In this document: positions 11,812 to 22,418 of the stretch, piece by piece
Layout of the letters: each line of letters opens with the position of its first letter
Position numbering within the stretch: position 1 is the first letter of the stretch
NCBI GenBank assembly: GCA_020428645.1
Contig: JAGQMN010000003.1
Span: forward strand, 1 to 51,073
Origin: Patescibacteria group bacterium
GTDB lineage: Bacteria > Patescibacteriota > Minisyncoccia > Phycocordibacterales > UBA1006
Reading direction: 5' to 3'
Length of the DNA: 51,073 nt
Program-made: the position numbers and the translations under genes
Notes under the pieces: model-generated
The model's database searches: none
What the model was told of the DNA's origin: nothing
What the model saw: the letters and a program-made list of their open reading frames with translations, nothing else

Positions 11812-13728
11812 TTATTCTCGTACCTGACCACTTGTATTTGGTGCTTGAGAGTCTTGCAGATTATTAATAACAGGTGTCTTCCGATAATTCAAATCAGTAT
11901 CGGTGAATTCGTCTGTACCTGAGAGGAGAATATCCCCTGTCAATTGGACAGGATTACCGATTTGTGACACTGATGGGGTCAATTCGATCTGTACCGAGAG
12001 TTGTTCCGGTTGGTTGGTACCGACACCAAGACCAGCAGGCATATCACCAATATTCCAAATGAGTTGTCTCGTTCCCGTATCAAATGATACCTTATTCCGC
12101 TCGATAGATGGTGCGACTGCATTCAACCACGTTACATAGCGAGGAAGCGTCGTACGAAGTTCAGCACTCGACACATCGTTCGATGAGTTACTGAGTTGGA
12201 AGACAATCGTGTACGTTGTGGATAGATTCGCACGTGGTGGCAACGGTCCTGAGTTTGCAAATGCTCCCTCGTAATACTGCACCTTTGGTGTTACTGAAAT
12301 ATCAGAATTAGCTCGCACTGTGTGTGTCGCTACACCAAATGCTTCACGACTCATTCCATTTAATTCACTCGCATGAACATCAACTGACATAGCAAACGAT
12401 GGATTGTCCAAGACACCCGATGCTGTCACGAGGTCTTTGGTGCCAACAGTGAATCGTACCTGACCACGTTCTCCTGGATCAAGACGACTGAGATTATCAA
12501 GTGAACTTGAATCAAAGACCAAGGTGCGACGACTTGAATCGTAGAATCCACTGAGGCTCGATACATCACTACGATTGTAGAGATCTCCATCAAATCGCAC
12601 CTCAATCACCGCGTTGGTAACAGGATCAGGGAGTGTGTTTTCGTATTCCAGGAGAACGCTCACATCGGCTCCACCACGCACACTCGAAACTGGTTCAGTG
12701 CTATTATTGACTGACAGGTTCGCAGTGAGGAATGATTTCTGTACTTCAATGGTATGCACAATACTGTTAAATACCGTCTCAATTTGGTGTTTATTCTGTG
12801 GATGTTGCTTACCAAATTCAATCACAAATGACTGCCCCTGCCCTTCAAGAGCGGCGAGACGTCCGGTAAATTCAATATGCTCGACATCTTGATCAATATC
12901 ACTGAAGTACCAGGTATTATCATTGAAACTGGGTGCTCTATTTGAACTCAGAAATTCAAAGCCTCGTGGGTAGGTTACCTTGAGCACAGTATCACGAACC
13001 TGTGCTATCGAGTTAGAGGCAATATCAATACCAATGGTTACCTCTTGGTTCCGAACGATAGTATCCGGAGCATCAATGAGTACCTGTGTAGGAGTTGATC
13101 GAATGATGACTTCGTGCGCAATTTCTTTGACAAAGATTGCGCTTGAACCATCAATGCGGTATTCAAGGGTAGCATTGATAGATCGAGTGTTCCCTTCTTG
13201 ACCAAACAAGGTCAGATCAAAATCTTCAGTTACCCGTTCACGAGGACCAATGTCTTCAAGCGAACGGCGCAAGAATACTACTTCAGCATCTTCGGCCGAA
13301 TCTTTTGGATATGAGAGGACAAGATCTGGGAGCTGGAGGTCTTGTTCGTTAAAGTTTTGAATCCGGACTTCAAGTTCAAGCTCTTCTCCTCCATCAACGA
13401 ACGGTTGACCGAGAATTTCCATCGCGATTAAGTCTTCTGATACCACTTTTCTCCCTTCATAGAGCGAGATACCAGCGACTGCAACCGTCACCACAAAAAA
13501 GACGAGGACAACGAGAAAAATCTTTTTAAAGAGTGAGGTTGGAAGTCGGTACTTTGAGCGAGCATGAATGAGATCGTCGTATGCATCATCTTTAAAGTCA
13601 TGGTCAAGTTCAATGTTACGATCATGAATTTTTCTTCGCGGCCGTTGTCCGTGTTCTTGTGCAGGATCGTACAAATCCCGTTCGAGTTCCTCAATACGAT
13701 TGTTCTTTTTTGGTTTGATATCGTCCAT
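11812..13728 (-). CDS. Membrane-anchored secreted protein with tandem Ig-like beta domains
   Basis: N-terminal charged region, one TM (IFLVVLVFFVVTVAVAGI), then about 540 aa of beta-rich sequence; no catalytic motif recognised. Confidence 0.7.
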   Translation of the reverse strand: MDDIKPKKNNRIEELERDLYDPAQEHGQRPRRKIHDRNIELDHDFKDDAYDDLIHARSKYRLPTSLFKKIFLVVLVFFVVTVAVAGISLYEGRKVVSEDLIAMEILGQPFVDGGEELELEVRIQNFNEQDLQLPDLVLSYPKDSAEDAEVVFLRRSLEDIGPRERVTEDFDLTLFGQEGNTRSINATLEYRIDGSSAIFVKEIAHEVIIRSTPTQVLIDAPDTIVRNQEVTIGIDIASNSIAQVRDTVLKVTYPRGFEFLSSNRAPSFNDNTWYFSDIDQDVEHIEFTGRLAALEGQGQSFVIEFGKQHPQNKHQIETVFNSIVHTIEVQKSFLTANLSVNNSTEPVSSVRGGADVSVLLEYENTLPDPVTNAVIEVRFDGDLYNRSDVSSLSGFYDSSRRTLVFDSSSLDNLSRLDPGERGQVRFTVGTKDLVTASGVLDNPSFAMSVDVHASELNGMSREAFGVATHTVRANSDISVTPKVQYYEGAFANSGPLPPRANLSTTYTIVFQLSNSSNDVSSAELRTTLPRYVTWLNAVAPSIERNKVSFDTGTRQLIWNIGDMPAGLGVGTNQPEQLSVQIELTPSVSQIGNPVQLTGDILLSGTDEFTDTDLNYRKTPVINNLQDSQAPNTSGQVRE

Positions 13729-13758
13729 GGTACGCAGGTACAGTATAGCAAGAAAGTA

Positions 13759-14328
13759 TCACAACTGGGAATTCTGTATCGCACCATTGATTTTTTTGAT
13801 AATCAGAGGTCGTGATTCAGTCACCTGTGTGTACATATCAGGTGAAAACGGATACTCGGTTAATAGCCATGGTTCCGATCCCTCCCAATATCCAAGTGCA
13901 TACAGAAACCTCGTCACAAAAATTAATTCAATTGATTCATTAGGTTCTTCAACAGATATATGGTCATATAAACGTACGATATCATGCCACACATCAGTGT
14001 TAGATTCTTCACCACTTGAAAACCGTATGATGAGTGATGCCATACGCGTAAGGAGTTCATACCAAGCGGTGCCTGCAAGTGTGATCGACGAGTATTCCTC
14101 GTGAATCCCGGTGAGTTTCCAGATATCCCGACCCTGAACCACATCCACGGTCACGAGCGAGAGGGTGTTGGTGTGAAATCGCATTTTACTCTTGAGATCA
14201 CGAACTGATTGCGTGCTGACGTAGATCAGCCCAAATCGTTCGGTGTATAACACAAGCAGTTTGTTTGATTCACGCATGTTTTTTGTTTTCAGTATGAGCG
14301 CTCGTGTTTGATAGATAGCGTGGGACAT
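13759..14328 (-). CDS. recO: DNA repair protein RecO (short form)
   Basis: RESNKLLVLYTERFGLI...VRDLKSKMR OB-fold N-terminus, plus LYALGY helical part. Confidence 0.8.
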   Translation of the reverse strand: MSHAIYQTRALILKTKNMRESNKLLVLYTERFGLIYVSTQSVRDLKSKMRFHTNTLSLVTVDVVQGRDIWKLTGIHEEYSSITLAGTAWYELLTRMASLIIRFSSGEESNTDVWHDIVRLYDHISVEEPNESIELIFVTRFLYALGYWEGSEPWLLTEYPFSPDMYTQVTESRPLIIKKINGAIQNSQL

Positions 14329-14436
14329 AGGTTTAGTTTAAGGTTATGAAGTATGAGTTGCAAGATAATTTGACTTGATTTTTATTACTGATATTTTTAA
14401 AAAAGAAACTGAAGTTGAACTAAATTAAACAATCCT

Positions 14437-14805
14437 ATGCTTTCTAACAAAAAATACATTTTAGCTAAACTCCATAGAATTAATCGAGTTTGGATTACAC
14501 AAAAAGATGATACAATCATCATCAGCTTAATATTTTCTTACCAAAACGAACGAAAGGTCTTTACAATTCCAACAATTAATTGGCAAGATCATCTTTCGCC
14601 GATTCTTGAACTGCTTAATAGATATCAAGGAACCGCAATAAGTTGTACAAAAGGTAAGTATTGGAATGAAGAAAGTATCGAAAAGGTAATGCAGAAACCT
14701 TCTAACCCGAACCTATTCTCAAGTATATTTGCGGAATTTAAAAAAATTGTTTGGGATAAGTGTATCGTTGAATTAGAGGTTCAAAGAACGAAAACATTTG
14801 CTTAA
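14437..14805 (+). CDS. Hypothetical protein (AT-rich)
   Basis: 122-aa ORF filling the gap; followed by a bidirectional hairpin at about 14821-14846. Confidence 0.6.
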   Translation: MLSNKKYILAKLHRINRVWITQKDDTIIISLIFSYQNERKVFTIPTINWQDHLSPILELLNRYQGTAISCTKGKYWNEESIEKVMQKPSNPNLFSSIFAEFKKIVWDKCIVELEVQRTKTFA

Positions 14806-14834
14806 ATTTAAAACCCAAACAAAAATGCGTGTTT

Positions 14835-17800
14835 CTACGCATTTTTTATTTCTGTAATCTGAATAACAAAACGTAATGCTTCAACAGTGATTTCTTCACC
14901 GCTCGTATCAGTAAATATTATTTCAGAAATTCCTGCAGTGTGTTTAATTTCGTCACTAAACTGTTCAATTAATGCGCGACCATCAGCATCAGTCTGTACT
15001 CGCATGGTAATTACGTCGTGTGCTTGAAGACCTGCATGTTTACGTAAATCTTGAATCTGACGCAAGAGTTCACGCATGTTCCCTTCTGCCTGGAGTTCAG
15101 GGGTAATTTCGGTATCGAGCGCATACGCTCCATCAACGACTGATTTAACGTTCATTTCCTCGAGAATCAATCCATGGTGACTGTGTGGAATGGTGTTGAT
15201 TGGCGCGGTAAAGGTTTGCAGTGCCTGACGAACCTTGATTTTTGCATCAGCACGTAATTGGAGTCCGGTACTAATGATGTCCCGTGTGTGCGCCATATCG
15301 GTAATCACCGCACTCGATACACGGGTTACCTGCGGCCAACTTGTTAGGTGTACTGATTCCTCATCAGTATCAGTACGTAGAGTCTGCCATAATTCCTCGG
15401 CAACAAATGGCACACATGGTGCAATAATTTTTGCAGTTTCGCGAAGTACGTACCGTGTTGTTGATAACGCTTCAACTGATCCCTCTTTTAATCGGTCACG
15501 AGATCGGCGAATGTACCAGGTTGAAAAATCATCCACAAAATCAAATATGTATCGCGCCGCTTTATCGAGTTCGTAGATATCGAGGTTTTCAGTAATGCCA
15601 GTACGCATTTCAGCCAATCGATTCAAAATCCACTGATCAAGAACATCTCGTGACGAGGTACTATGGGTATGGGTCGCGGTGCCTTGATACATCGTGTACA
15701 ACGAAACGATATTACGCAGTCGTCCCATCACCTTTGATGCAACTTCCTGTGTTCCCTTCTCTGAAAATGCAAATTCTTCACCACGCACTACCGGTGATGC
15801 AATCAGATACAATCGTACCGCGTCTGCACCAGTCGTATCAAACATGTACTGTGGATCAGGATAGTTATTGAGTCGCTTTGACATCTTTTTGCCGTCCTCT
15901 GCCAACACGAGTCCGTTCACGATAACATTCTGAAACGGAATCTTCTTGAACAGTGCTGTTCCGAGTACCGACAGTACGTAGAACCATCCACGAGTTTGGT
16001 CGAGACCCTCGGCAATAAACTGCGCTGGAAATCGTTTCTTTTTAAAATCTTTTTTGTTCTCAAATGGATAGTGCACCTGTGCGTACGGCATTGATCCGGA
16101 ATCAAACCATACGTCAAACACATCTTCAATGCGTTTCATTGGCTCGCCGGACTTGGAGCGTACCTCTACCTGATCAATGTACGGTCGATGAAGGTCCAGT
16201 ACGTAATCATTGTTGTGCGGAAACGGTGTAAACTTGAACCGTAGAACATCAGCATTATTTGGTAATGGTTGGTGGTAGTAAAAATCACGAGCCTTTTTCT
16301 CAACACCTCGATGTGTTATAGCAAATTGAATCGTTTTGAGTATGCCACCGTGTGAAATAATAACAATATTTTTATTTTTGTATGTTTCCTCAAGCTCAAA
16401 CATGAAATCCATGATGCGCACGTACACATCACGAATAGATTCAGCATCATCGGCCAAGCGATAGTTCCAAAAATCATTCACATCTTGTGATTCTTCAACG
16501 GCGTGTGCATCATGCCACATCTTGCCCTCCCACGAACGACCTGGGTTTCGTTCGCGGAGGCGATCATCAACGATAACTTGCTCGTCAGAGAGACCAAATT
16601 CTTTTTTAATAATTATTGCAGTTTCTTCTGTACGCTGAAGCGGTGATACAAACACGTAGTCAATGTTGTTTGGTAATTTTTGCGCTGCTTGTTTTGATCG
16701 TTCACGCCCATGATCGGTCAGTGGGTTGTGTGTCGCCTGGTCAGCATTGATAACACCAGTGGTATTTGAAACCGCCTCTCCATGACGAAAACCGTAGTAC
16801 TGATTCCCTGATTGGGGTACCCGTTCCAAGAGTTTCTCAACCGAACCTGGTACAAAGAGTTCATCCTCGATCGTTTTCCACACAGGTAGTGGTGTGCCCC
16901 AGAATCGTGATCGTGACAGTGCCCAATCACGAGCACCTTCGAGCCATTTACCGAACCGTCCTTCTCCAACGTGGTCGGGCACCCAGTTCACCTTTTTATT
17001 ATTTTTGAGGAGCTTATCCGTGAGTTCAGGAACCGAAACGTACCACGAGGTAGTTGCATAGTTTAACAACGGAGTATCACACCGCCAGCAATGTGGGTAG
17101 CTGTGCTTAAAGTTTGGATCCTTAGAAAACAGTAAGTCATTCTGATCTAATATTTTAGATATAATATTATCTACCTTACGTGGTTCATCTTTTGATTTAA
17201 CTTTTAATCCTGTTAGATCAAAATCTTTAGTGAAACTATCTTTGAATTCACCATTCTTCAAAACATGCTGTACAAACGGCAGGTTGTGCATACGACCGAG
17301 TTTCATGTCGTCAGAACCAAATGCTGGTGCAATGTGTACGATTCCTGTTCCGTCTTCAGTCGTAACAAAATCAGCCGCGTACACCCTCCACCCGTTTTCG
17401 CGGTTTTCTAGGTCTGATTGCCGTTGGTAGTAATCAAAGACCGGAATATAAGATTTCCCGATGAGTTCAGTTCCCTTAAATTTGGAAACAATTTTGGGCT
17501 CACTGGAACGGAATGCTTTAGATATTCCCTCCTTGTTTTCTTCCCATATTTTTTTTGCAAGAATATAATAATTTTTAATATGAGTAGATGCTTCTAAACT
17601 CCTCTCCATGAGAGGTTGTGTATTTATTTCATTAATAAATGAATCTTCAATTTTCACATACTCAATATCCTTACCAACAGCCAAAGCAACGTTCCCTGGT
17701 AGTGTCCATGGGGTTGTCGTCCATGCCAATAGGTACGTTCCTGGTTCGTCTACGAGTTCAAACTTTGCGGTAACTGAAATGTCAGTTACATCTTCATACC

Positions 17801-18443
17801 CCTGGTTCACCTCAAAATTTGACAGTGTTGTCTCACACCGTGGGCAGAGATGCATCGCCTTGAAGTCCTCTTTGGTTAAACCTTTTTGGTACAGCTCACT
17901 AAAAATCCACCACACAGATTCCATGTAGGAGGGCTGCATCGACATGTACGGGTTCTCCATATCAATCCAACGCCCCGAACGCGGTACGTAACGTTTCCAC
18001 TCTGACTCGTAGCGAAGAACCGAATCACGCGCCGCCTCGTTGAATTTTTCAATGCCGTACTCTTCGATGTCTTTTTTGGTTTCGAGGTTAAGCTCTTTTT
18101 CAATCAGATTCTCGATAGGTAGTCCGTGACAATCCCACCCCCAGGTACGTGGTACGCGGTAGCCCTGCATGGTCTTGTAGCGTGGAATGATATCTTTGAT
18201 CGTTCCGGCGAGAAGGTGTCCGTAGTGTGGAAGTCCAGTTGCAAACGGAGGCCCATCGTAAAATACGAAATCACCTTTTGGAGACTTCTTTTCGAGGGTT
18301 TTTTGGAAGATCTGGTTTTCGTTCCAAAATTTCAACACCTGTTCCTCGGAACGAGCAGTCTGAGACTTCTCTTGTGTATTGCTTGCCCGACCATCTTGCT
18401 GGTTTAGGGTATTCGACTTGTTGGGTTCCTTTTCTTGAGCCAT
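14835..18443 (-). CDS. ileS: Isoleucine--tRNA ligase type 2 with an inserted histidine-phosphatase domain
   Basis: FYDGPPFATGLPHYGH, WDCHGLPIE, AWTTTPWTLPGN, EGLDQTRGWFY, KMSKRLNNY; RHG...SPLQRT...SHGG insert at about 16225-16800. Confidence 0.95.
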   Translation of the reverse strand: MAQEKEPNKSNTLNQQDGRASNTQEKSQTARSEEQVLKFWNENQIFQKTLEKKSPKGDFVFYDGPPFATGLPHYGHLLAGTIKDIIPRYKTMQGYRVPRTWGWDCHGLPIENLIEKELNLETKKDIEEYGIEKFNEAARDSVLRYESEWKRYVPRSGRWIDMENPYMSMQPSYMESVWWIFSELYQKGLTKEDFKAMHLCPRCETTLSNFEVNQGYEDVTDISVTAKFELVDEPGTYLLAWTTTPWTLPGNVALAVGKDIEYVKIEDSFINEINTQPLMERSLEASTHIKNYYILAKKIWEENKEGISKAFRSSEPKIVSKFKGTELIGKSYIPVFDYYQRQSDLENRENGWRVYAADFVTTEDGTGIVHIAPAFGSDDMKLGRMHNLPFVQHVLKNGEFKDSFTKDFDLTGLKVKSKDEPRKVDNIISKILDQNDLLFSKDPNFKHSYPHCWRCDTPLLNYATTSWYVSVPELTDKLLKNNKKVNWVPDHVGEGRFGKWLEGARDWALSRSRFWGTPLPVWKTIEDELFVPGSVEKLLERVPQSGNQYYGFRHGEAVSNTTGVINADQATHNPLTDHGRERSKQAAQKLPNNIDYVFVSPLQRTEETAIIIKKEFGLSDEQVIVDDRLRERNPGRSWEGKMWHDAHAVEESQDVNDFWNYRLADDAESIRDVYVRIMDFMFELEETYKNKNIVIISHGGILKTIQFAITHRGVEKKARDFYYHQPLPNNADVLRFKFTPFPHNNDYVLDLHRPYIDQVEVRSKSGEPMKRIEDVFDVWFDSGSMPYAQVHYPFENKKDFKKKRFPAQFIAEGLDQTRGWFYVLSVLGTALFKKIPFQNVIVNGLVLAEDGKKMSKRLNNYPDPQYMFDTTGADAVRLYLIASPVVRGEEFAFSEKGTQEVASKVMGRLRNIVSLYTMYQGTATHTHSTSSRDVLDQWILNRLAEMRTGITENLDIYELDKAARYIFDFVDDFSTWYIRRSRDRLKEGSVEALSTTRYVLRETAKIIAPCVPFVAEELWQTLRTDTDEESVHLTSWPQVTRVSSAVITDMAHTRDIISTGLQLRADAKIKVRQALQTFTAPINTIPHSHHGLILEEMNVKSVVDGAYALDTEITPELQAEGNMRELLRQIQDLRKHAGLQAHDVITMRVQTDADGRALIEQFSDEIKHTAGISEIIFTDTSGEEITVEALRFVIQITEIKNA

Positions 18444-18455
18444 AAATATAGTTGC

Positions 18456-18464
18456 ATTTTAGCA
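18456..18464 (-). promoter_or_regulatory. Extended -10 element immediately upstream of ileS
   Basis: TGCTAAAAT, 12 nt before the ileS ATG. Confidence 0.5.
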
Positions 18465-18504
18465 CGTATGCGCCCTAATGCCTGCTGACGCAGGCTCGGG
18501 TTAT

Positions 18505-18535
18505 AAAAGAAACCGCCGTAATCCGGGCGGTTCTT
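18505..18535 (-). terminator. Intrinsic terminator in the ileS leader (attenuator terminator)
   Basis: Minus strand AAGAACCGCC-CGGATTAC-GGCGGTTTCTTTT. Confidence 0.85.
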
Positions 18536-18566
18536 GTATAACAATCATTACAAAGTTCCCGGATTC

Positions 18567-18614
18567 TTATGCGGTCCTTGAAATAATAATTGAAATAATT
18601 GCACGTCGTTGCAT
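18567..18614 (-). CDS. Ile-rich ileS leader peptide, 15 aa (MQRRAIISIIISRTA)
   Basis: ATG CAA CGA CGT GCA ATT ATT TCA ATT ATT ATT TCA AGG ACC GCA TAA: five ATT Ile codons within six consecutive codons, upstream of a terminator and of ileS. Confidence 0.85.
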   Translation of the reverse strand: MQRRAIISIIISRTA

Positions 18615-18620
18615 GTTTTA

Positions 18621-18629
18621 ATCCTAACA
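18621..18629 (-). promoter_or_regulatory. Extended -10 for the ileS leader peptide
   Basis: TGTTAGGAT, 6 nt before the leader ATG; the same spacing is seen at many genes in the window. Confidence 0.55.
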
Positions 18630-18692
18630 GGATTTTGTTTTTTGAAAAGAAAAACCTACCAAAGAAATGTAAATCTTTCCTTGGTAGGTGGT

Positions 18693-19145
18693 TTATAATT
18701 TTTTATTAAATATTGATACAAAGGCACCAATGTAAATACCGGGATTCCAACTGGTAACGGAAGAACCGAATTCAATGAATGCCGAATTATTCCCGATCGA
18801 GTAAGTTCCTCCAACACCAACGTAGTTAAAATCTTCTATCACACCCTTCAGAGCTACACCATACCAACCAAAGTTATCTTTGATAGGTTCTATGTATACA
18901 ACACCAACACTATTGGCAAAGAGAGAATAAAAACTACTAAAAGTGCTCTTTCCTTTTGAAAAATTTAAGGTTACGAATAGGTTTGTCTGGTTGGTGAAGC
19001 CTTGATCAAAATTTTTTAAGTCAAGACCTCCTTGAGGAGCAAAAATAATTCCGGTACTTACTGACCATTTTTTTAAGCTTTCTTCTTCTTGCGAAAATGA
19101 AACAAAGGTAATCAATAAAATGAGTAGAAAAAATATTTTTTTCAT
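18693..19145 (-). CDS. Secreted hypothetical protein, possibly a small beta-barrel
   Basis: Signal peptide MKKIFFLLILLITFVSFSQ; alternating Gly/aromatic beta-strand pattern; AT-rich; hairpin at about 18652-18690 downstream. Confidence 0.65.
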   Translation of the reverse strand: MKKIFFLLILLITFVSFSQEEESLKKWSVSTGIIFAPQGGLDLKNFDQGFTNQTNLFVTLNFSKGKSTFSSFYSLFANSVGVVYIEPIKDNFGWYGVALKGVIEDFNYVGVGGTYSIGNNSAFIEFGSSVTSWNPGIYIGAFVSIFNKKL

Positions 19146-19251
19146 AACGACGAGGTTTTAAAATGTTTGGAATATATATTATCATATATATAGTTGTATG
19201 TCAAATATTAAAATGGAATTTTGATTTAAATAAAAAACAACCTCTCGGTTG

Positions 19252-20949
19252 TTACATTTGCTCCAAGGCGTCGATGCCTAGTATCCACAATCCATTTTTG
19301 ATCACCTGCCCTGTCGCCTTGGTCAATGCTAACCGATACAGCGTTGCCGGATCATCTTGGTCGACAATTTTCGTGTTACCGTACCAGGTGTTAAACATCT
19401 GCGCGAGTTCCGTGACGTAGGTCACCACCTGGTGTGGAGCAAGGTCACGAAACGCAAGGTCGACAATTTCAGGGAATCGGTAGAGGTAGCGTTCGAGGTC
19501 GGTGACCTGCCACCCATCAGGTTGTTCGAGTTGCGGTTCAAGATCGAGGTGAGACGCCTTATCTAATACTGATTGTGCACGCGCGTAGGTGTACTGGAGG
19601 TACGGACCTGAATCCCCTTCAAACGACAGCGAGGTATCGGGATCGAAATTAATATTTTTACCAGCCTGGGTACGGAGAATGGTGTACTTAATCGCAGCAA
19701 TCGCAATTACATCAGCCTCGTCAGGTGTCAGCGTTCGCCCGTCAGCACGTTCGTTCACTTCCTCGACCACCGCGTCCAAAATATCAGCCACGAGTGGCGT
19801 GTTACCGAGACGTGATGACATCTTTGTTCCCTTGAATTGCATGCGCCCATGGGTCTTGTGCACCATTTTTTCATCCCAGTCAGCATTAATTTTTCCAGCA
19901 GAGGTTTTAACTACCTTGTAGTATTCTTTCTGTTCAGAATCAGTTACCAACACTGATAGGTCAGGTTGGTAACGTTCAAATTTTAGTTTTAAGAGTCCAA
20001 TATCCTTTGCCTCGTAGGTTGGGTTGCCATCTTTGTTGATAAACACGCGGGTGTGGAGTCCGTCTTGTTCTCCCTCGTAGATTACCGCACCATTTGATTC
20101 GGTGTACACGTCAGGTACATGGTTCATGACAATTTCCTTTCCTGCGATTCCTGCCTCTGATTCGAAAATGAGTCCGTCAAACGATGAGCCAAGTCGTGCA
20201 GTCATCTTTAAAAAGTAGTCGAGATTAAGGTCGCGCCCAATTTTATACGCGGCGTAGGCAGGAGTGTCTCGATGTTCGTAGATATCTTGCGTGATTTCTC
20301 GAACTCGAGCTTCAAGTTCAGGGGCAGCATCGTAGGCCTGGGTTCCTTCTGCGTAACACCGCCCAAGGAATGCCATTTTTTCTGCGACAGTTTCAAACTC
20401 GTCGAGTTTTTCAACACCATAGTCCATGAGTTTCCAAACCGCTTTTCCAATACCGAGCGACACATCAGATGGATACGAAACCACGGTGACCTCCGCCCCG
20501 CTGGTGTGTGCTAACCGAGCCATCGATTCACCAATGGTGTTGTTCATCATGTGTCCAATGTGAAATGGTTTAAAGAGGTTTGGTGATGAGTGTTCGACCA
20601 AGATTTTCTTCCCCTGCCATGCAGTATTCCACCCGTAGTTATCTGGGTTCGTAAAAATTTCCTTCACCTGGCTGAGGTAAAATTCATCGGCGAGCGTGAT
20701 GTTGATGAATCCAGGACCAGCGACCTCGATGTTCGCAATTTCTGGTGCGTTGATATTTTTTGCGATGATTTCCGCCAGTTCGAGGGGGTTTTTATTCTCG
20801 GCTTTTGCCAACATCATCGCAATATTGGTAGCGTAGTCACCGTGCGAGAGCTCGCGTGGATGCTCAAGCGTGAGATCACCGTCATAGGAAATTCCGGCCT
20901 TTTCAACTGCGGTTTTGATTGCTTGTGTGATTGTTTCGGTAATCACCAT
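19252..20949 (-). CDS. argS: Arginine--tRNA ligase
   Basis: HGDYATNIAM, AGPGFIN, EHSSPNLFKPFHIGH, KMSSRLGN, FEGDSGPYLQYTYAR. Confidence 0.97.
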   Translation of the reverse strand: MVITETITQAIKTAVEKAGISYDGDLTLEHPRELSHGDYATNIAMMLAKAENKNPLELAEIIAKNINAPEIANIEVAGPGFINITLADEFYLSQVKEIFTNPDNYGWNTAWQGKKILVEHSSPNLFKPFHIGHMMNNTIGESMARLAHTSGAEVTVVSYPSDVSLGIGKAVWKLMDYGVEKLDEFETVAEKMAFLGRCYAEGTQAYDAAPELEARVREITQDIYEHRDTPAYAAYKIGRDLNLDYFLKMTARLGSSFDGLIFESEAGIAGKEIVMNHVPDVYTESNGAVIYEGEQDGLHTRVFINKDGNPTYEAKDIGLLKLKFERYQPDLSVLVTDSEQKEYYKVVKTSAGKINADWDEKMVHKTHGRMQFKGTKMSSRLGNTPLVADILDAVVEEVNERADGRTLTPDEADVIAIAAIKYTILRTQAGKNINFDPDTSLSFEGDSGPYLQYTYARAQSVLDKASHLDLEPQLEQPDGWQVTDLERYLYRFPEIVDLAFRDLAPHQVVTYVTELAQMFNTWYGNTKIVDQDDPATLYRLALTKATGQVIKNGLWILGIDALEQM

Positions 20950-21014
20950 ATGCTTGTATTCTACATGTTTAGAGCAACAAAAAAAGAGTATTATTGAGGC
21001 ATACTCTTTTTTCA

Positions 21015-21155
21015 CTACAACATACCATTGAGTTTTCCTTCATCTCTGAGAAGGGTTTTTATATGTGTAATTACTTTCTTATTATATTTTTTTGCTGATT
21101 TTCTGATTCCTTCAGAATCAACTGGTTTTAAACCTGCAAGGAGTTTATTACCCAT
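21015..21155 (-). CDS. Small hypothetical ORF, 46 aa (MGNKLLAGLKPVDSEGIRKSAKKYNKK...GKLNGML)
   Basis: Manual translation; fills an otherwise empty 280-nt gap between argS and the next gene. Confidence 0.35.
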   Translation of the reverse strand: MGNKLLAGLKPVDSEGIRKSAKKYNKKVITHIKTLLRDEGKLNGML

Positions 21156-21231
21156 AATTTATTTTTTTACGTTACTAAATTAAAGTAAAACAAAAAAATC
21201 ACATTTTGAAAAGAACATAAGCCCTTCTGAC

Positions 21232-21642
21232 CTATGTTGTAAAAATCTGTTTAAAGATATCTTCTATATCCTCCAAGGTCGTATAGTCGAATACCTCAAA
21301 ATAGGCATTACCTCTCACCATAGCTGACAATGTTTTATCAGAACCTGCATTAAACAAACACACCGTGCGTTTTCCCTTGGCTTCTGCAAAAGCTAATTCG
21401 TACCCAACACCAAGGCTTGGTTGGGTTACCTCGGCGATGACGATATCTGATTCAAGCAACCAATTGATGTCTTGGTTGTAAATGAACGCGTCGGTCATTT
21501 CTTCTTCGTGTTGAAATACATTACCAAAACCAATATGCTCGGTGAGTACTTCTCCGTACTCTTTTAACATCGTAATAATTTTTTGCTATTTTTCTTGGTC
21601 TTCGCGCCCTCCCCTAATTGATCCTGCAAAATAAATTTTCAT
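21232..21642 (-). pseudogene. Nucleoside 2-deoxyribosyltransferase / RCL-like 5'-monophosphate N-glycosidase with an in-frame TAG
   Basis: MKIYFAGSIRGGREDQEK*QKIITMLKEYGEVLTEH...SDIVIAEVTQPSLGVGYE. The stop is at 21588-21586 (codon 19) with the frame preserved. Confidence 0.85.
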
Positions 21643-21643
21643 A

Positions 21644-21895
21644 TTATTTTTGTTTTGTTAGCCACCATCGTTTAATAAGGGGTAACGATTGTACCGATAG
21701 AAAGTATCCAAGTGTTGGAATAACAGCATTAATCAATGGGCGTGCAATATCTAGGGCATACATCACAAGTACAGCAAATAAGTAGGTGATTACAACAATG
21801 GAAACATATCTAGTAGTACTTGTCTCCCATGCTTTTTCAAGTTCAACACGCTGATTACGTTGTTGAATATGTATAATTTCTTTTTCTATATCCAT
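21644..21895 (-). CDS. Small hypothetical membrane protein
   Basis: MDIEKEI..RNQRVELEKAWETS followed by two hydrophobic helices. Confidence 0.7.
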   Translation of the reverse strand: MDIEKEIIHIQQRNQRVELEKAWETSTTRYVSIVVITYLFAVLVMYALDIARPLINAVIPTLGYFLSVQSLPLIKRWWLTKQK

Positions 21896-21896
21896 A

Positions 21897-22418
21897 CTAC
21901 TCATTATCAAACACTCTCTTAAACTTCTCAACCTTTGGAGCGATGACAAGCTGACAGTAGGACTGCTCGGGATTATTGGCAAAGTAATCCTGATGGTAGT
22001 CTTCGGCTGGATAAAATTCCTGCAGTGGTACCACCTCGGTTACGATCGGGTTCTCGTATGCACCTGATTCGTTCAGTTGGTCGATGATTTGATTCGCGAG
22101 AATCATGTCGTCCTTATCCTGGTACAAAATGATACTGCGGTATTGGGTACCTACATCAGCACCCTGCTGGTTTAAGGTTGTCGGATCGTGTACCGTGAAA
22201 AAGATTTCGAGAATTTTTTTGAGCGAAACAATGTTTGGGTTATAGGTGAGTTTCACTACCTCGGCGTGACCGGTCCGACCACCACACACCTCGCGGTAGC
22301 TAGGATTTTTATCACCACCTCCAGCGTAGCCAACGACAACGTCAGTGATCCCTTCGGTCATAGTAAATATTGGGTCGAGACACCAAAAGCATCCACCTCC
22401 TAGTACAATAGTTTTCAT
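21897..22418 (-). CDS. msrA: Peptide-methionine (S)-S-oxide reductase
   Basis: GGGCFWC, YREVCGGRTGHAE, QYRSII, AEDYHQDY. Confidence 0.96.
   Translation of the reverse strand: MKTIVLGGGCFWCLDPIFTMTEGITDVVVGYAGGGDKNPSYREVCGGRTGHAEVVKLTYNPNIVSLKKILEIFFTVHDPTTLNQQGADVGTQYRSIILYQDKDDMILANQIIDQLNESGAYENPIVTEVVPLQEFYPAEDYHQDYFANNPEQSYCQLVIAPKVEKFKRVFDNE

Follow-up and report, generated by a model that had tools for sequence, protein, structure and literature searches.

The isoleucyl-tRNA synthetase (IleRS) gene examined here raises the question of how a class-I synthetase came to hold what looks like a whole phosphatase inside its catalytic body, and what that phosphatase does there. The gene, ileS (14835..18443), lies in a 51,073-nucleotide stretch of DNA from a member of the Patescibacteria (order Phycocordibacterales; GenBank assembly GCA_020428645.1, contig JAGQMN010000003.1, positions 1 to 51,073), which is referred to as the window and carries all features described for it below on the minus strand. 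A single uninterrupted open reading frame (ORF) encodes a type-2 IleRS with a nested phosphatase, and its length of 1202 residues, proposed in an earlier reading made from the letters alone (the sequence-only reading), was confirmed. Gene-sized catalytic inserts in the Rossmann-fold body of aminoacyl-tRNA synthetases (aaRS) are rare outside the editing domain, and annotation pipelines label the proteins concerned only as "class I tRNA ligase family protein". In one of the largest bacterial radiations, an intact phosphatase stays tied to IleRS as a coupled gene, a nested domain or both.

Identity and fold of the nested domain

The insert is a complete histidine phosphatase of branch 1, of the PhoE/PspA/CobC type. 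In the Pfam scan, His_Phos_1 (PF00300) matched residues 553-715 (E 5.8e-30, 104.8 bits against a cut-off of 21.7) and sat between both halves of tRNA-synt_1. The motif set claimed by the sequence-only reading was located in full, namely FRHGE (residues 552-556), SPLQRT (600-605), DRLRE (627-631) and ISHGG (696-700), between WGTPLPVW (515-522) and DLHRPYID (750-757). The same reading had placed an insert of about 190 residues at 16225-16800 (residues 548-740); its location held, but its size did not, since measurement against insert-less relatives gave residues 542-749 (nucleotides 16197-16820), about 208 residues. The phosphatase domain proper covers residues 542-737 (16233..16820), as supported by Pfam, AlphaFold2 (AF2), Foldseek and alignment to free-standing copies.

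Modelled alone by AF2, the insert reached a pLDDT of 96.6 and a pTM of 0.92. Foldseek returned PspA (4IJ6, TM 0.75), Rv2419c, the riboflavin-pathway HFP, PhoE, CobC and TIGAR at TM 0.70-0.75, with probability 1.00 for PspA, Rv2419c and PhoE, in agreement with an alpha/beta fold of the dPGM/PhoE type. The refuting possibility raised in the sequence-only reading, an insert that would not adopt the histidine phosphatase fold, is thereby contradicted. The nearest relatives by sequence (E ~1e-8) were the small free-standing phosphatases PspA (4IJ5), PhoE (1EBB/1H2E) and CobC (6NRU).

The host protein was equally clear. It scored 847.6 bits against the ileS equivalog TIGR00392 (cut-off 621.4), and HIGH, KMSKS, the CP1 editing domain and a DUF5915 C-terminus in place of the type-1 zinc domain identified it as a type-2 IleRS. 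The AF2 model of residues 31-1202, built with 110 homologues as input, had a pLDDT of 93.3 and a pTM of 0.85, with values of 93-98 in the insert region, and the top PDB matches of this whole model in Foldseek were the type-2/eukaryotic IleRS 8C8U/8C8V, 8WND and 1ILE, type-1 enzymes matching worse. A search with the ileS model through the source genome (720 kb, 39 contigs, 88% complete) found the window protein as its sole IleRS; the remaining matches were below cut-off and were paralogous class-I synthetases such as the LeuRS on contig C5. The polypeptide is predicted to be bifunctional, combining a type-2 IleRS with a nested phosphatase.

We consider it negligibly likely that this architecture is artefactual, whether through a chimeric assembly, an intein or a wrongly called frame. 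The frame is uninterrupted, the model is a confident single chain, and identical junctions occur in more than 100 independent assemblies, which excludes the chimera. An intein, which the sequence-only reading had already discounted, was rejected: no Hint or other intein family appeared in the Pfam scan, and a free-standing enzyme aligns colinearly with the insert.

Conservation of the catalytic residues

Histidine phosphatases transfer the phosphoryl group of the substrate to the histidine of the RHG motif, while two arginines and a second histidine hold the phosphate and an acidic residue acts as proton donor. All of these positions were present in the insert. Nine residues (R553, H554, N560, T576, G579, S600, R604, E631 and H698) were invariant in 110 of 110 full-length homologues, and the median identity of these homologues to the window protein was 36% over the domain and 51% over the IleRS core. 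On the DNA, the RHG motif (R553, H554 and G555, with H554 as the predicted phospho-accepting histidine) lies at 16779..16787, R604 of the phosphate pocket at 16632..16634, E631 as the predicted proton donor at 16551..16553, and H698, the second catalytic-site histidine, at 16350..16352. In the reaction the phosphoryl group would pass to His554, with Arg553, Arg604 and His698 holding the phosphate and Glu631 protonating the leaving group.

Invariant catalytic residues at a domain identity of only about 36% are the pattern of a working catalyst rather than of a scaffold, indicating that the domain is under selection for catalysis and is apparently active. In addition, no variant copy that was inspected had lost any of the catalytic set, be it one of a tandem or one of a free-standing copy accompanied by a nested one. 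These results bear on the idea that the domain is a catalytically dead structural filler which replaced the zinc knuckle of CP3. Such a filler would fit the loss of the four knuckle cysteines in 83% of the nested forms, and the domain may now stabilise CP3; the invariance of six catalytic and phosphate-pocket residues in 110 sequences, tandem and duplicate copies included, makes this idea hardly credible.

Insertion site in CP3

The insertion point is the tip of the CP3 zinc-knuckle hairpin, some 30 residues beyond the strand holding the CCA end of the tRNA. CP3 starts with the CP2-CP3 linker ARDWALSRSRFWG (residues 504-516, 16896..16934; family consensus a.DWaiSR.RyWg in the 110 sequences), which is the homologue of the yeast IleRS strand 453-ARDWNVSRNRYWG-465. 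In the yeast enzyme this strand shapes the pocket for the tRNA 3'-CCA end, and its Arg454, Arg460 and Arg462 mimic LeuRS contacts to A73, C74 and A76 (PMC7955072). The CP3 subdomain of Thermus thermophilus IleRS bears a zinc motif (PMC7191050), and in the junction alignment the insert-less relatives kept a CxxC...CxC knuckle at the site with only about four residues at its tip.

In the window enzyme the N-side arm of the knuckle (residues 517-541, 16821..16895) has lost its CxxC cysteines, and the knuckle cysteines as a whole are gone. Among the 110 nested forms, 91 had none of the knuckle cysteines and 16 had all four, suggesting that they usually decayed after nesting. On the other side of the domain, a return linker (residues 738-749, 16197..16232, the TPFPHNNDYVL region) leads back to DLHRPYID (residues 750-757, 16173..16196), where the IleRS sequence resumes as the C-side arm of CP3. 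The consensus of this linker, F.PFPHN..YEL, was conserved in the 110 nested forms and was absent from free-standing phosphatases and insert-less IleRS alike. If the phosphatase is a passenger, the CP3 tip would be a permissive insertion site in IleRS that could serve protein engineering.

Distribution and variants

A word-indexed search retrieved 153 clusters at 90% identity, all of them IleRS of about 1100-1300 residues with PF00300 and all labelled Patescibacteria, Paceibacteria or Parcubacteria, and an exhaustive comparison with 1.84 billion representatives (50% identity) gave 454 at E<=1e-10, so that the sharing of the domain goes well past anything chance would produce. In the class of the source organism (Paceibacteria), 235 of 300 sampled genomes had a phosphatase match. 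A copy was counted as nested when the match lay inside a frame of 650 residues or more, and among the 150 best class matches such a frame (>=650 residues) was found in 126 genomes. Nested forms were also present in other classes of the phylum (400-genome sample).

The remaining 65 class genomes had no detectable phosphatase. An IleRS match was found in 55 of them, with a frame of 933-1045 residues, that is a plain enzyme, in 42 and a larger frame in 3. Non-homologous replacement of the phosphatase in these genomes was rejected, as they mostly have a plain IleRS and only G033 has a Nudix domain instead (L046, G033:C13; 1187-residue IleRS with NUDIX at residues 216-334).

Several variants of the architecture were observed. 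In family f94 of another class (L037/G609, L038/G572 and L039/G621), the IleRS has 1449-1543 residues, and its CP3 holds two phosphatase domains, both catalytically intact; the second follows the DLH motif and belongs to the classical RHGETDWN type. A single clade of both tandem domains was not rejected (approximately unbiased test, p-AU 0.77), so that either a tandem duplication or an independent insertion may have produced the second. Four His_Phos stretches occur in P0121 and a single domain in P0233, at about residue 231, and P0171 carries its two domains downstream of the KMSKS region, ahead of the anticodon domain. In P0083, P0097 and P0118 (IleRS of about 1290-1300 residues), an HD domain (PF01966) lies inside DUF5915 in addition to the CP3 phosphatase. 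At L040 (G607:C1), ileS with its nested phosphatase shares an operon with a GNAT acetyltransferase (157 residues) and a second, free-standing His_Phos_1 protein (206 residues); NCBIfam holds an exception model named "ileS_w_GNAT". A nested phosphatase 54% identical to that of the window is filed under a "Crocinitomicaceae bacterium" metagenome-assembled genome (L044, JBLIKX010000016.1) and is probably a binning stray from Paceibacteria.

The LeuRS of the source genome (G000:C5:18749-22252, plus strand; L045:750-4253) is also interrupted. Pfam detects two NUDIX domains nested in this protein of 1168 residues (E 9.8e-29), and their Nudix boxes, at residues 288-310 and 651-673, are intact; the first domain precedes the editing domain, and the second, upstream of the strand RLRDWGISRQRYWG (residues 785-798), ends about 25 residues ahead of the strand RDWGISRQRYWG. 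LeuRS with Nudix domains are widespread in Paceibacteria, and further LeuRS variants host ASCH, alpha/beta-hydrolase, HAD and Ham1 domains. The window protein fits this picture of class-Ia synthetases of the candidate phyla radiation (CPR) with nested small hydrolases.

Proposed origin from a neighbouring gene

Twelve genomes with a free-standing phosphatase copy of about 190 residues were compared. Five of them have the copy immediately ahead of an insert-less ileS in the same orientation, the stop and start codons being 1-4 nucleotides apart or overlapping; four have it at a distance of 1.3-2.5 kb upstream, again in the same orientation, and in three there was no ileS near it. The gene order argS-phosphatase-(0-3 unrelated genes)-ileS-recO was recurrent in the relatives, family f57 being a case with unrelated genes between the phosphatase and ileS. 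The order in the window is argS, an ORF of 150 residues, ileS with the nested phosphatase, and recO. Starting at about residue 3, the free-standing proteins match the insert all the way to their C-terminus and, judged by these alignments, the insert is orthologous to the free-standing phosphatase gene of 180-210 residues.

Both forms of the phosphatase coexist in two genomes of another class (G464 and G408), one free-standing upstream of ileS and one nested in it, and recO again follows downstream. This state could have arisen by local duplication of the phosphatase gene together with the 5' part of ileS, followed by deletion, and would survive in these two genomes, and loss of one or the other copy would then have led to nested-only or split-only lineages. 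We infer that the insert originated by local duplication of the neighbouring gene into ileS.

In the tree of the IleRS core (949 columns, insert excluded), a single clade of split-type enzymes was rejected (delta log-likelihood 214, p-AU 8e-5), and the split or nested state changed at least 2-3 times. In the phosphatase tree, which is too short for event counts, one free-standing clade was not rejected (p 0.33). Two members of the same genus, L022 (G115) and L023 (G229), have phosphatases that are 82% identical and IleRS cores in different clades, which suggests replacement of the ileS allele by transfer or recombination. Such allele exchange confounds the counts of split and nested events. 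Furthermore, adjacency makes local nesting mechanistically easy, so that nesting alone is no proof of a functional link.

Role of the phosphatase

None of the curated phosphatase equivalogs of NCBIfam reached its cut-off with the insert. CobC (TIGR03162) scored 76.5 bits against 162.9, the archaeal dPGM model (NF038349) 70.6 against 225 with other dPGM models lower, PspA 49 against 350, and SixA (TIGR00249), which matched the N-terminal third only, 28.3 against 74.5. Since all of these models are below cut-off, the substrate cannot be transferred from them.

The reading that ranks first, to which we give an even chance, is that the phosphatase is an autonomous housekeeping phosphomonoesterase acting on a small phosphorylated metabolite or nucleotide, and that IleRS, in a streamlined genome, carries it as a tolerated, co-expressed passenger which is not needed for aminoacylation. 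The word "housekeeping" is used here as a default label. The suggestion of a moonlighting enzyme in a gene-fusing genome, made in the sequence-only reading, comes close to this. In its favour, the nearest relatives in both sequence and structure are all small-metabolite phosphatases, IleRS is plain in 42 of the 55 phosphatase-less class genomes in which it was found, and in f57 unrelated genes split the phosphatase from ileS. The domain is mildly acidic (median isoelectric point 5.7) and shows no RNA-binding signature, which is weak evidence. CPR class-Ia synthetases also host Nudix, HD, ASCH, alpha/beta-hydrolase, HAD and Ham1 domains, some of which have no tRNA logic, and the adjacency of phosphatase and ileS makes repeated local copying into ileS likely. 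If the phosphatase is a passenger, it would provide a clean natural example of neighbouring genes turning into nested domains in streamlined genomes.

Several observations weigh against a mere passenger. All examined hosts of the phosphatase lineage, other than the free-standing forms, are class-I synthetases, mostly IleRS; nesting occurred at several distinct sites and with 2-4 copies; the canonical site emerges from the CCA-binding strand; the return linker is conserved; and the whole-protein model is rigid (pTM 0.85). For a pure passenger, fusion to one end of the host protein would be the simpler arrangement, and the association of phosphatase and IleRS is unusually persistent and specific.

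These observations can be accommodated by a tentative alternative, in which the phosphatase acts on the synthetase's own ligand or on a phosphorylated nucleotide competing at the ATP/A76 pocket. The position of CP3 would suit such a partner of IleRS, as it begins with the ARDW..SR.RYWG strand, which is conserved in the window enzyme and which in yeast IleRS provides arginines that imitate the contacts to A73, C74 and A76 (PMC7955072). So would the coupling to ileS in three forms, as a translationally coupled upstream gene, by nesting and as both, together with the recurrence of nesting at several positions and copy numbers, every time in a class-I synthetase. The sister synthetases carry phosphohydrolases as well, with two Nudix domains in the LeuRS of the same genome and HD or Nudix domains in some IleRS. 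However, the literature search yielded no histidine phosphatase that acts on RNA ends, the domain lacks a basic surface signature, and many relatives run a plain IleRS without the phosphatase. Not all insertion sites are near the CCA pocket either, the domains of P0171 being placed after KMSKS and before the anticodon domain. A search of the 88%-complete genome for two RNA-repair partner genes, 2H phosphoesterase and RtcB, came up empty; taken with the Rel/SpoT synthetase domain that the genome does have, this says little about a role in RNA repair.

A more specific proposal, which we regard as unlikely, extends to the His-phosphatase, Nudix and HD modules of patescibacterial class-Ia synthetases in general: they would strip a 2'/3'-phosphate or a 3'-pyrophosphate from damaged or toxin-modified CCA ends, or destroy nucleotide poisons and by-products at the ATP/A76 pocket. 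Two leads lie behind it, namely that the HD domain of the E. coli CCA-adding enzyme is a phosphatase and 2',3'-cyclic phosphodiesterase, and that toxSAS toxins pyrophosphorylate the CCA ends of tRNA. Action on the tRNA 3' end, one of the suggestions of the sequence-only reading, is possible since CP3 springs from the CCA-pocket strand; partner genes and charge do not support it, and the many relatives with a phosphatase-less IleRS weaken it. If correct, it would mean tRNA end repair or sanitation physically coupled to charging, a new aaRS accessory activity beside editing. Whether on tRNA ends or on active-site nucleotides, such a role would constitute a new synthetase-linked quality control, possibly a counter-measure to tRNA-targeting toxins.

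The weak, partial SixA match would fit another role, that of a regulatory enzyme. In this case a phosphoprotein or signalling phosphatase of the SixA/PGAM5/Sts kind would be gated by the state of IleRS as an isoleucine sensor, or would reverse the phosphorylation of the synthetase by a kinase toxin; HipA-type kinases phosphorylate class-I synthetases. The stoichiometric coupling to IleRS and the rigid, conserved attachment of the domain speak for it. The SixA score of 28 bits is weak against its cut-off of 74.5, and the closest folds are full-cap metabolite phosphatases, not SixA, Sts or PGAM5, so that we consider a regulatory role improbable.

The sub-threshold match to the archaeal dPGM model is relevant to a glycolytic moonlighter, in which the domain would be the dPGM-type phosphoglycerate mutase (PGM) of the cell, at least in its own order. 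The insert is the only His_Phos_1 of the genome, PGK is present, and no iPGM or aPGM was found in the 88%-complete genome. Of the 12 genomes sampled from the order, eight have enolase and one has an iPGM-type enzyme, and 12 genomes with a nested copy, mostly of this order, have enolase without iPGM. In the 300 class genomes as a whole, enolase was found in 117 and iPGM in 230, and elsewhere in the class there are many families with iPGM and without enolase. Enolase was not found in the source genome itself; among the 126 nested genomes, enolase is missing from 82 and an iPGM is already encoded by 94; and the frequency of iPGM is 76% with the phosphatase against 78% without it. The dPGM score (70.6 against 225) is low, and the nearest structures are phosphatases, not mutases. 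A metabolic gap-filling role as PGM therefore fails as a general explanation, there being no complementarity with iPGM or enolase across the 300 class genomes. The moonlighter as such is very improbable, and a PGM role is conceivable for the 12 enolase-positive, iPGM-negative genomes. A missing pyrophosphatase was also considered: neither a family-I pyrophosphatase nor a proton-pumping one was found in the source genome, and this role was rejected because a DHH/DHHA2 protein of the family-II type is present.

Other features of the locus

The other domains and signatures of the window enzyme are in the expected places. The HIGH signature reads HYGH (residues 73-76, 18216..18227) and the KMSKS signature reads KMSKR (residues 853-857, 15873..15887). 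The anticodon-binding domain covers residues 936-1076 (15216..15638; PF08264, E 5.7e-29), and the type-2 C-terminal domain DUF5915 covers residues 1106-1196 (14856..15128; PF19302, E 1.3e-15).

In the neighbourhood, argS, encoding ArgRS, lies upstream (19252..21015; Pfam) and recO downstream (13759..14328; Pfam RecO_N), both as in the syntenic argS-(phosphatase)-ileS-recO order of relatives. The ORF of 150 residues between argS and ileS (18693-19145) has a hydrophobic N-terminus, occupies the slot of the phosphatase gene in split-type relatives and had no Pfam match. In the Rfam scan of window positions 13000-22000, no known leader RNA or other family was found around ileS.

Comparison with known systems

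A phosphatase joined to a nucleic-acid enzyme is known from the RNase H/acid phosphatase of the Mycobacterium tuberculosis Rv2228c type (NF005567), whose phosphatase is CobC/PhoE-like as in the window protein. That protein is a terminal fusion while the window domain is nested, and the insert scored 64.7 bits against a cut-off of 326 for its model. To our knowledge, no functional link has been established between its halves. The HD domain of the E. coli CCA-adding enzyme is likewise a phosphohydrolase built into an enzyme of the tRNA 3' end and is the analogy behind the repair idea; it differs in having another fold and a terminal position and in being biochemically tested, whereas the IleRS insert is known from sequence and model.

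The closest precedent is the IleRS of SR1 described by Kantor et al. (2013, mBio), which in one sentence was reported to have a Nudix and two phosphoglycerate-mutase domains (PMC3812714). As in the window, a CPR IleRS is broken in frame by domains of the PGM superfamily. The SR1 enzyme belongs to another CPR lineage and combines two PGM domains with a Nudix domain, whereas the window enzyme has one domain at the CP3 tip and no Nudix, the Nudix domains of its genome lying in LeuRS. That sentence is descriptive and gives no site, conservation, origin or function (PMC3812714). The sequence-only reading, which had called the fusion a feature of automated CPR annotations with no functional explanation, was right on both counts, and had missed that the architecture was already in print. 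Nothing else was found in the literature on a histidine phosphatase with IleRS, aaRS or tRNA, and this sole verified mention uses the term "phosphoglycerate mutase domains" (PMC3812714). The architecture is thus already noted in print and in databases, and there is now a good description of its anatomy, origin and distribution.

Among solved structures, the IleRS2 of Priestia megaterium (8C8U/8C8V), the T. thermophilus enzyme (1ILE) and the yeast/Candida IleRS (8WND, 6LDK) superpose with TM 0.75-0.81 on the target and share with it HIGH, KMSKS, the CP1 editing domain and the type-2 C-terminal domain. The CP3 zinc motif of T. thermophilus (PMC7191050) is kept by split-type relatives and lost in the window enzyme, and, unlike the window enzyme, none of the solved type-2 IleRS has a domain inserted in CP3. 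For the insert itself, the counterparts are Hydrogenobacter PspA (4IJ5/4IJ6), Bacillus PhoE/YhfR (1H2E/1EBB), CobC (6NRU/6E4B), Rv2419c (4QIH) and HFP (9MMH), which have the same fold, size and catalytic set, are 21-25% identical to it, and are all free-standing metabolite phosphatases.

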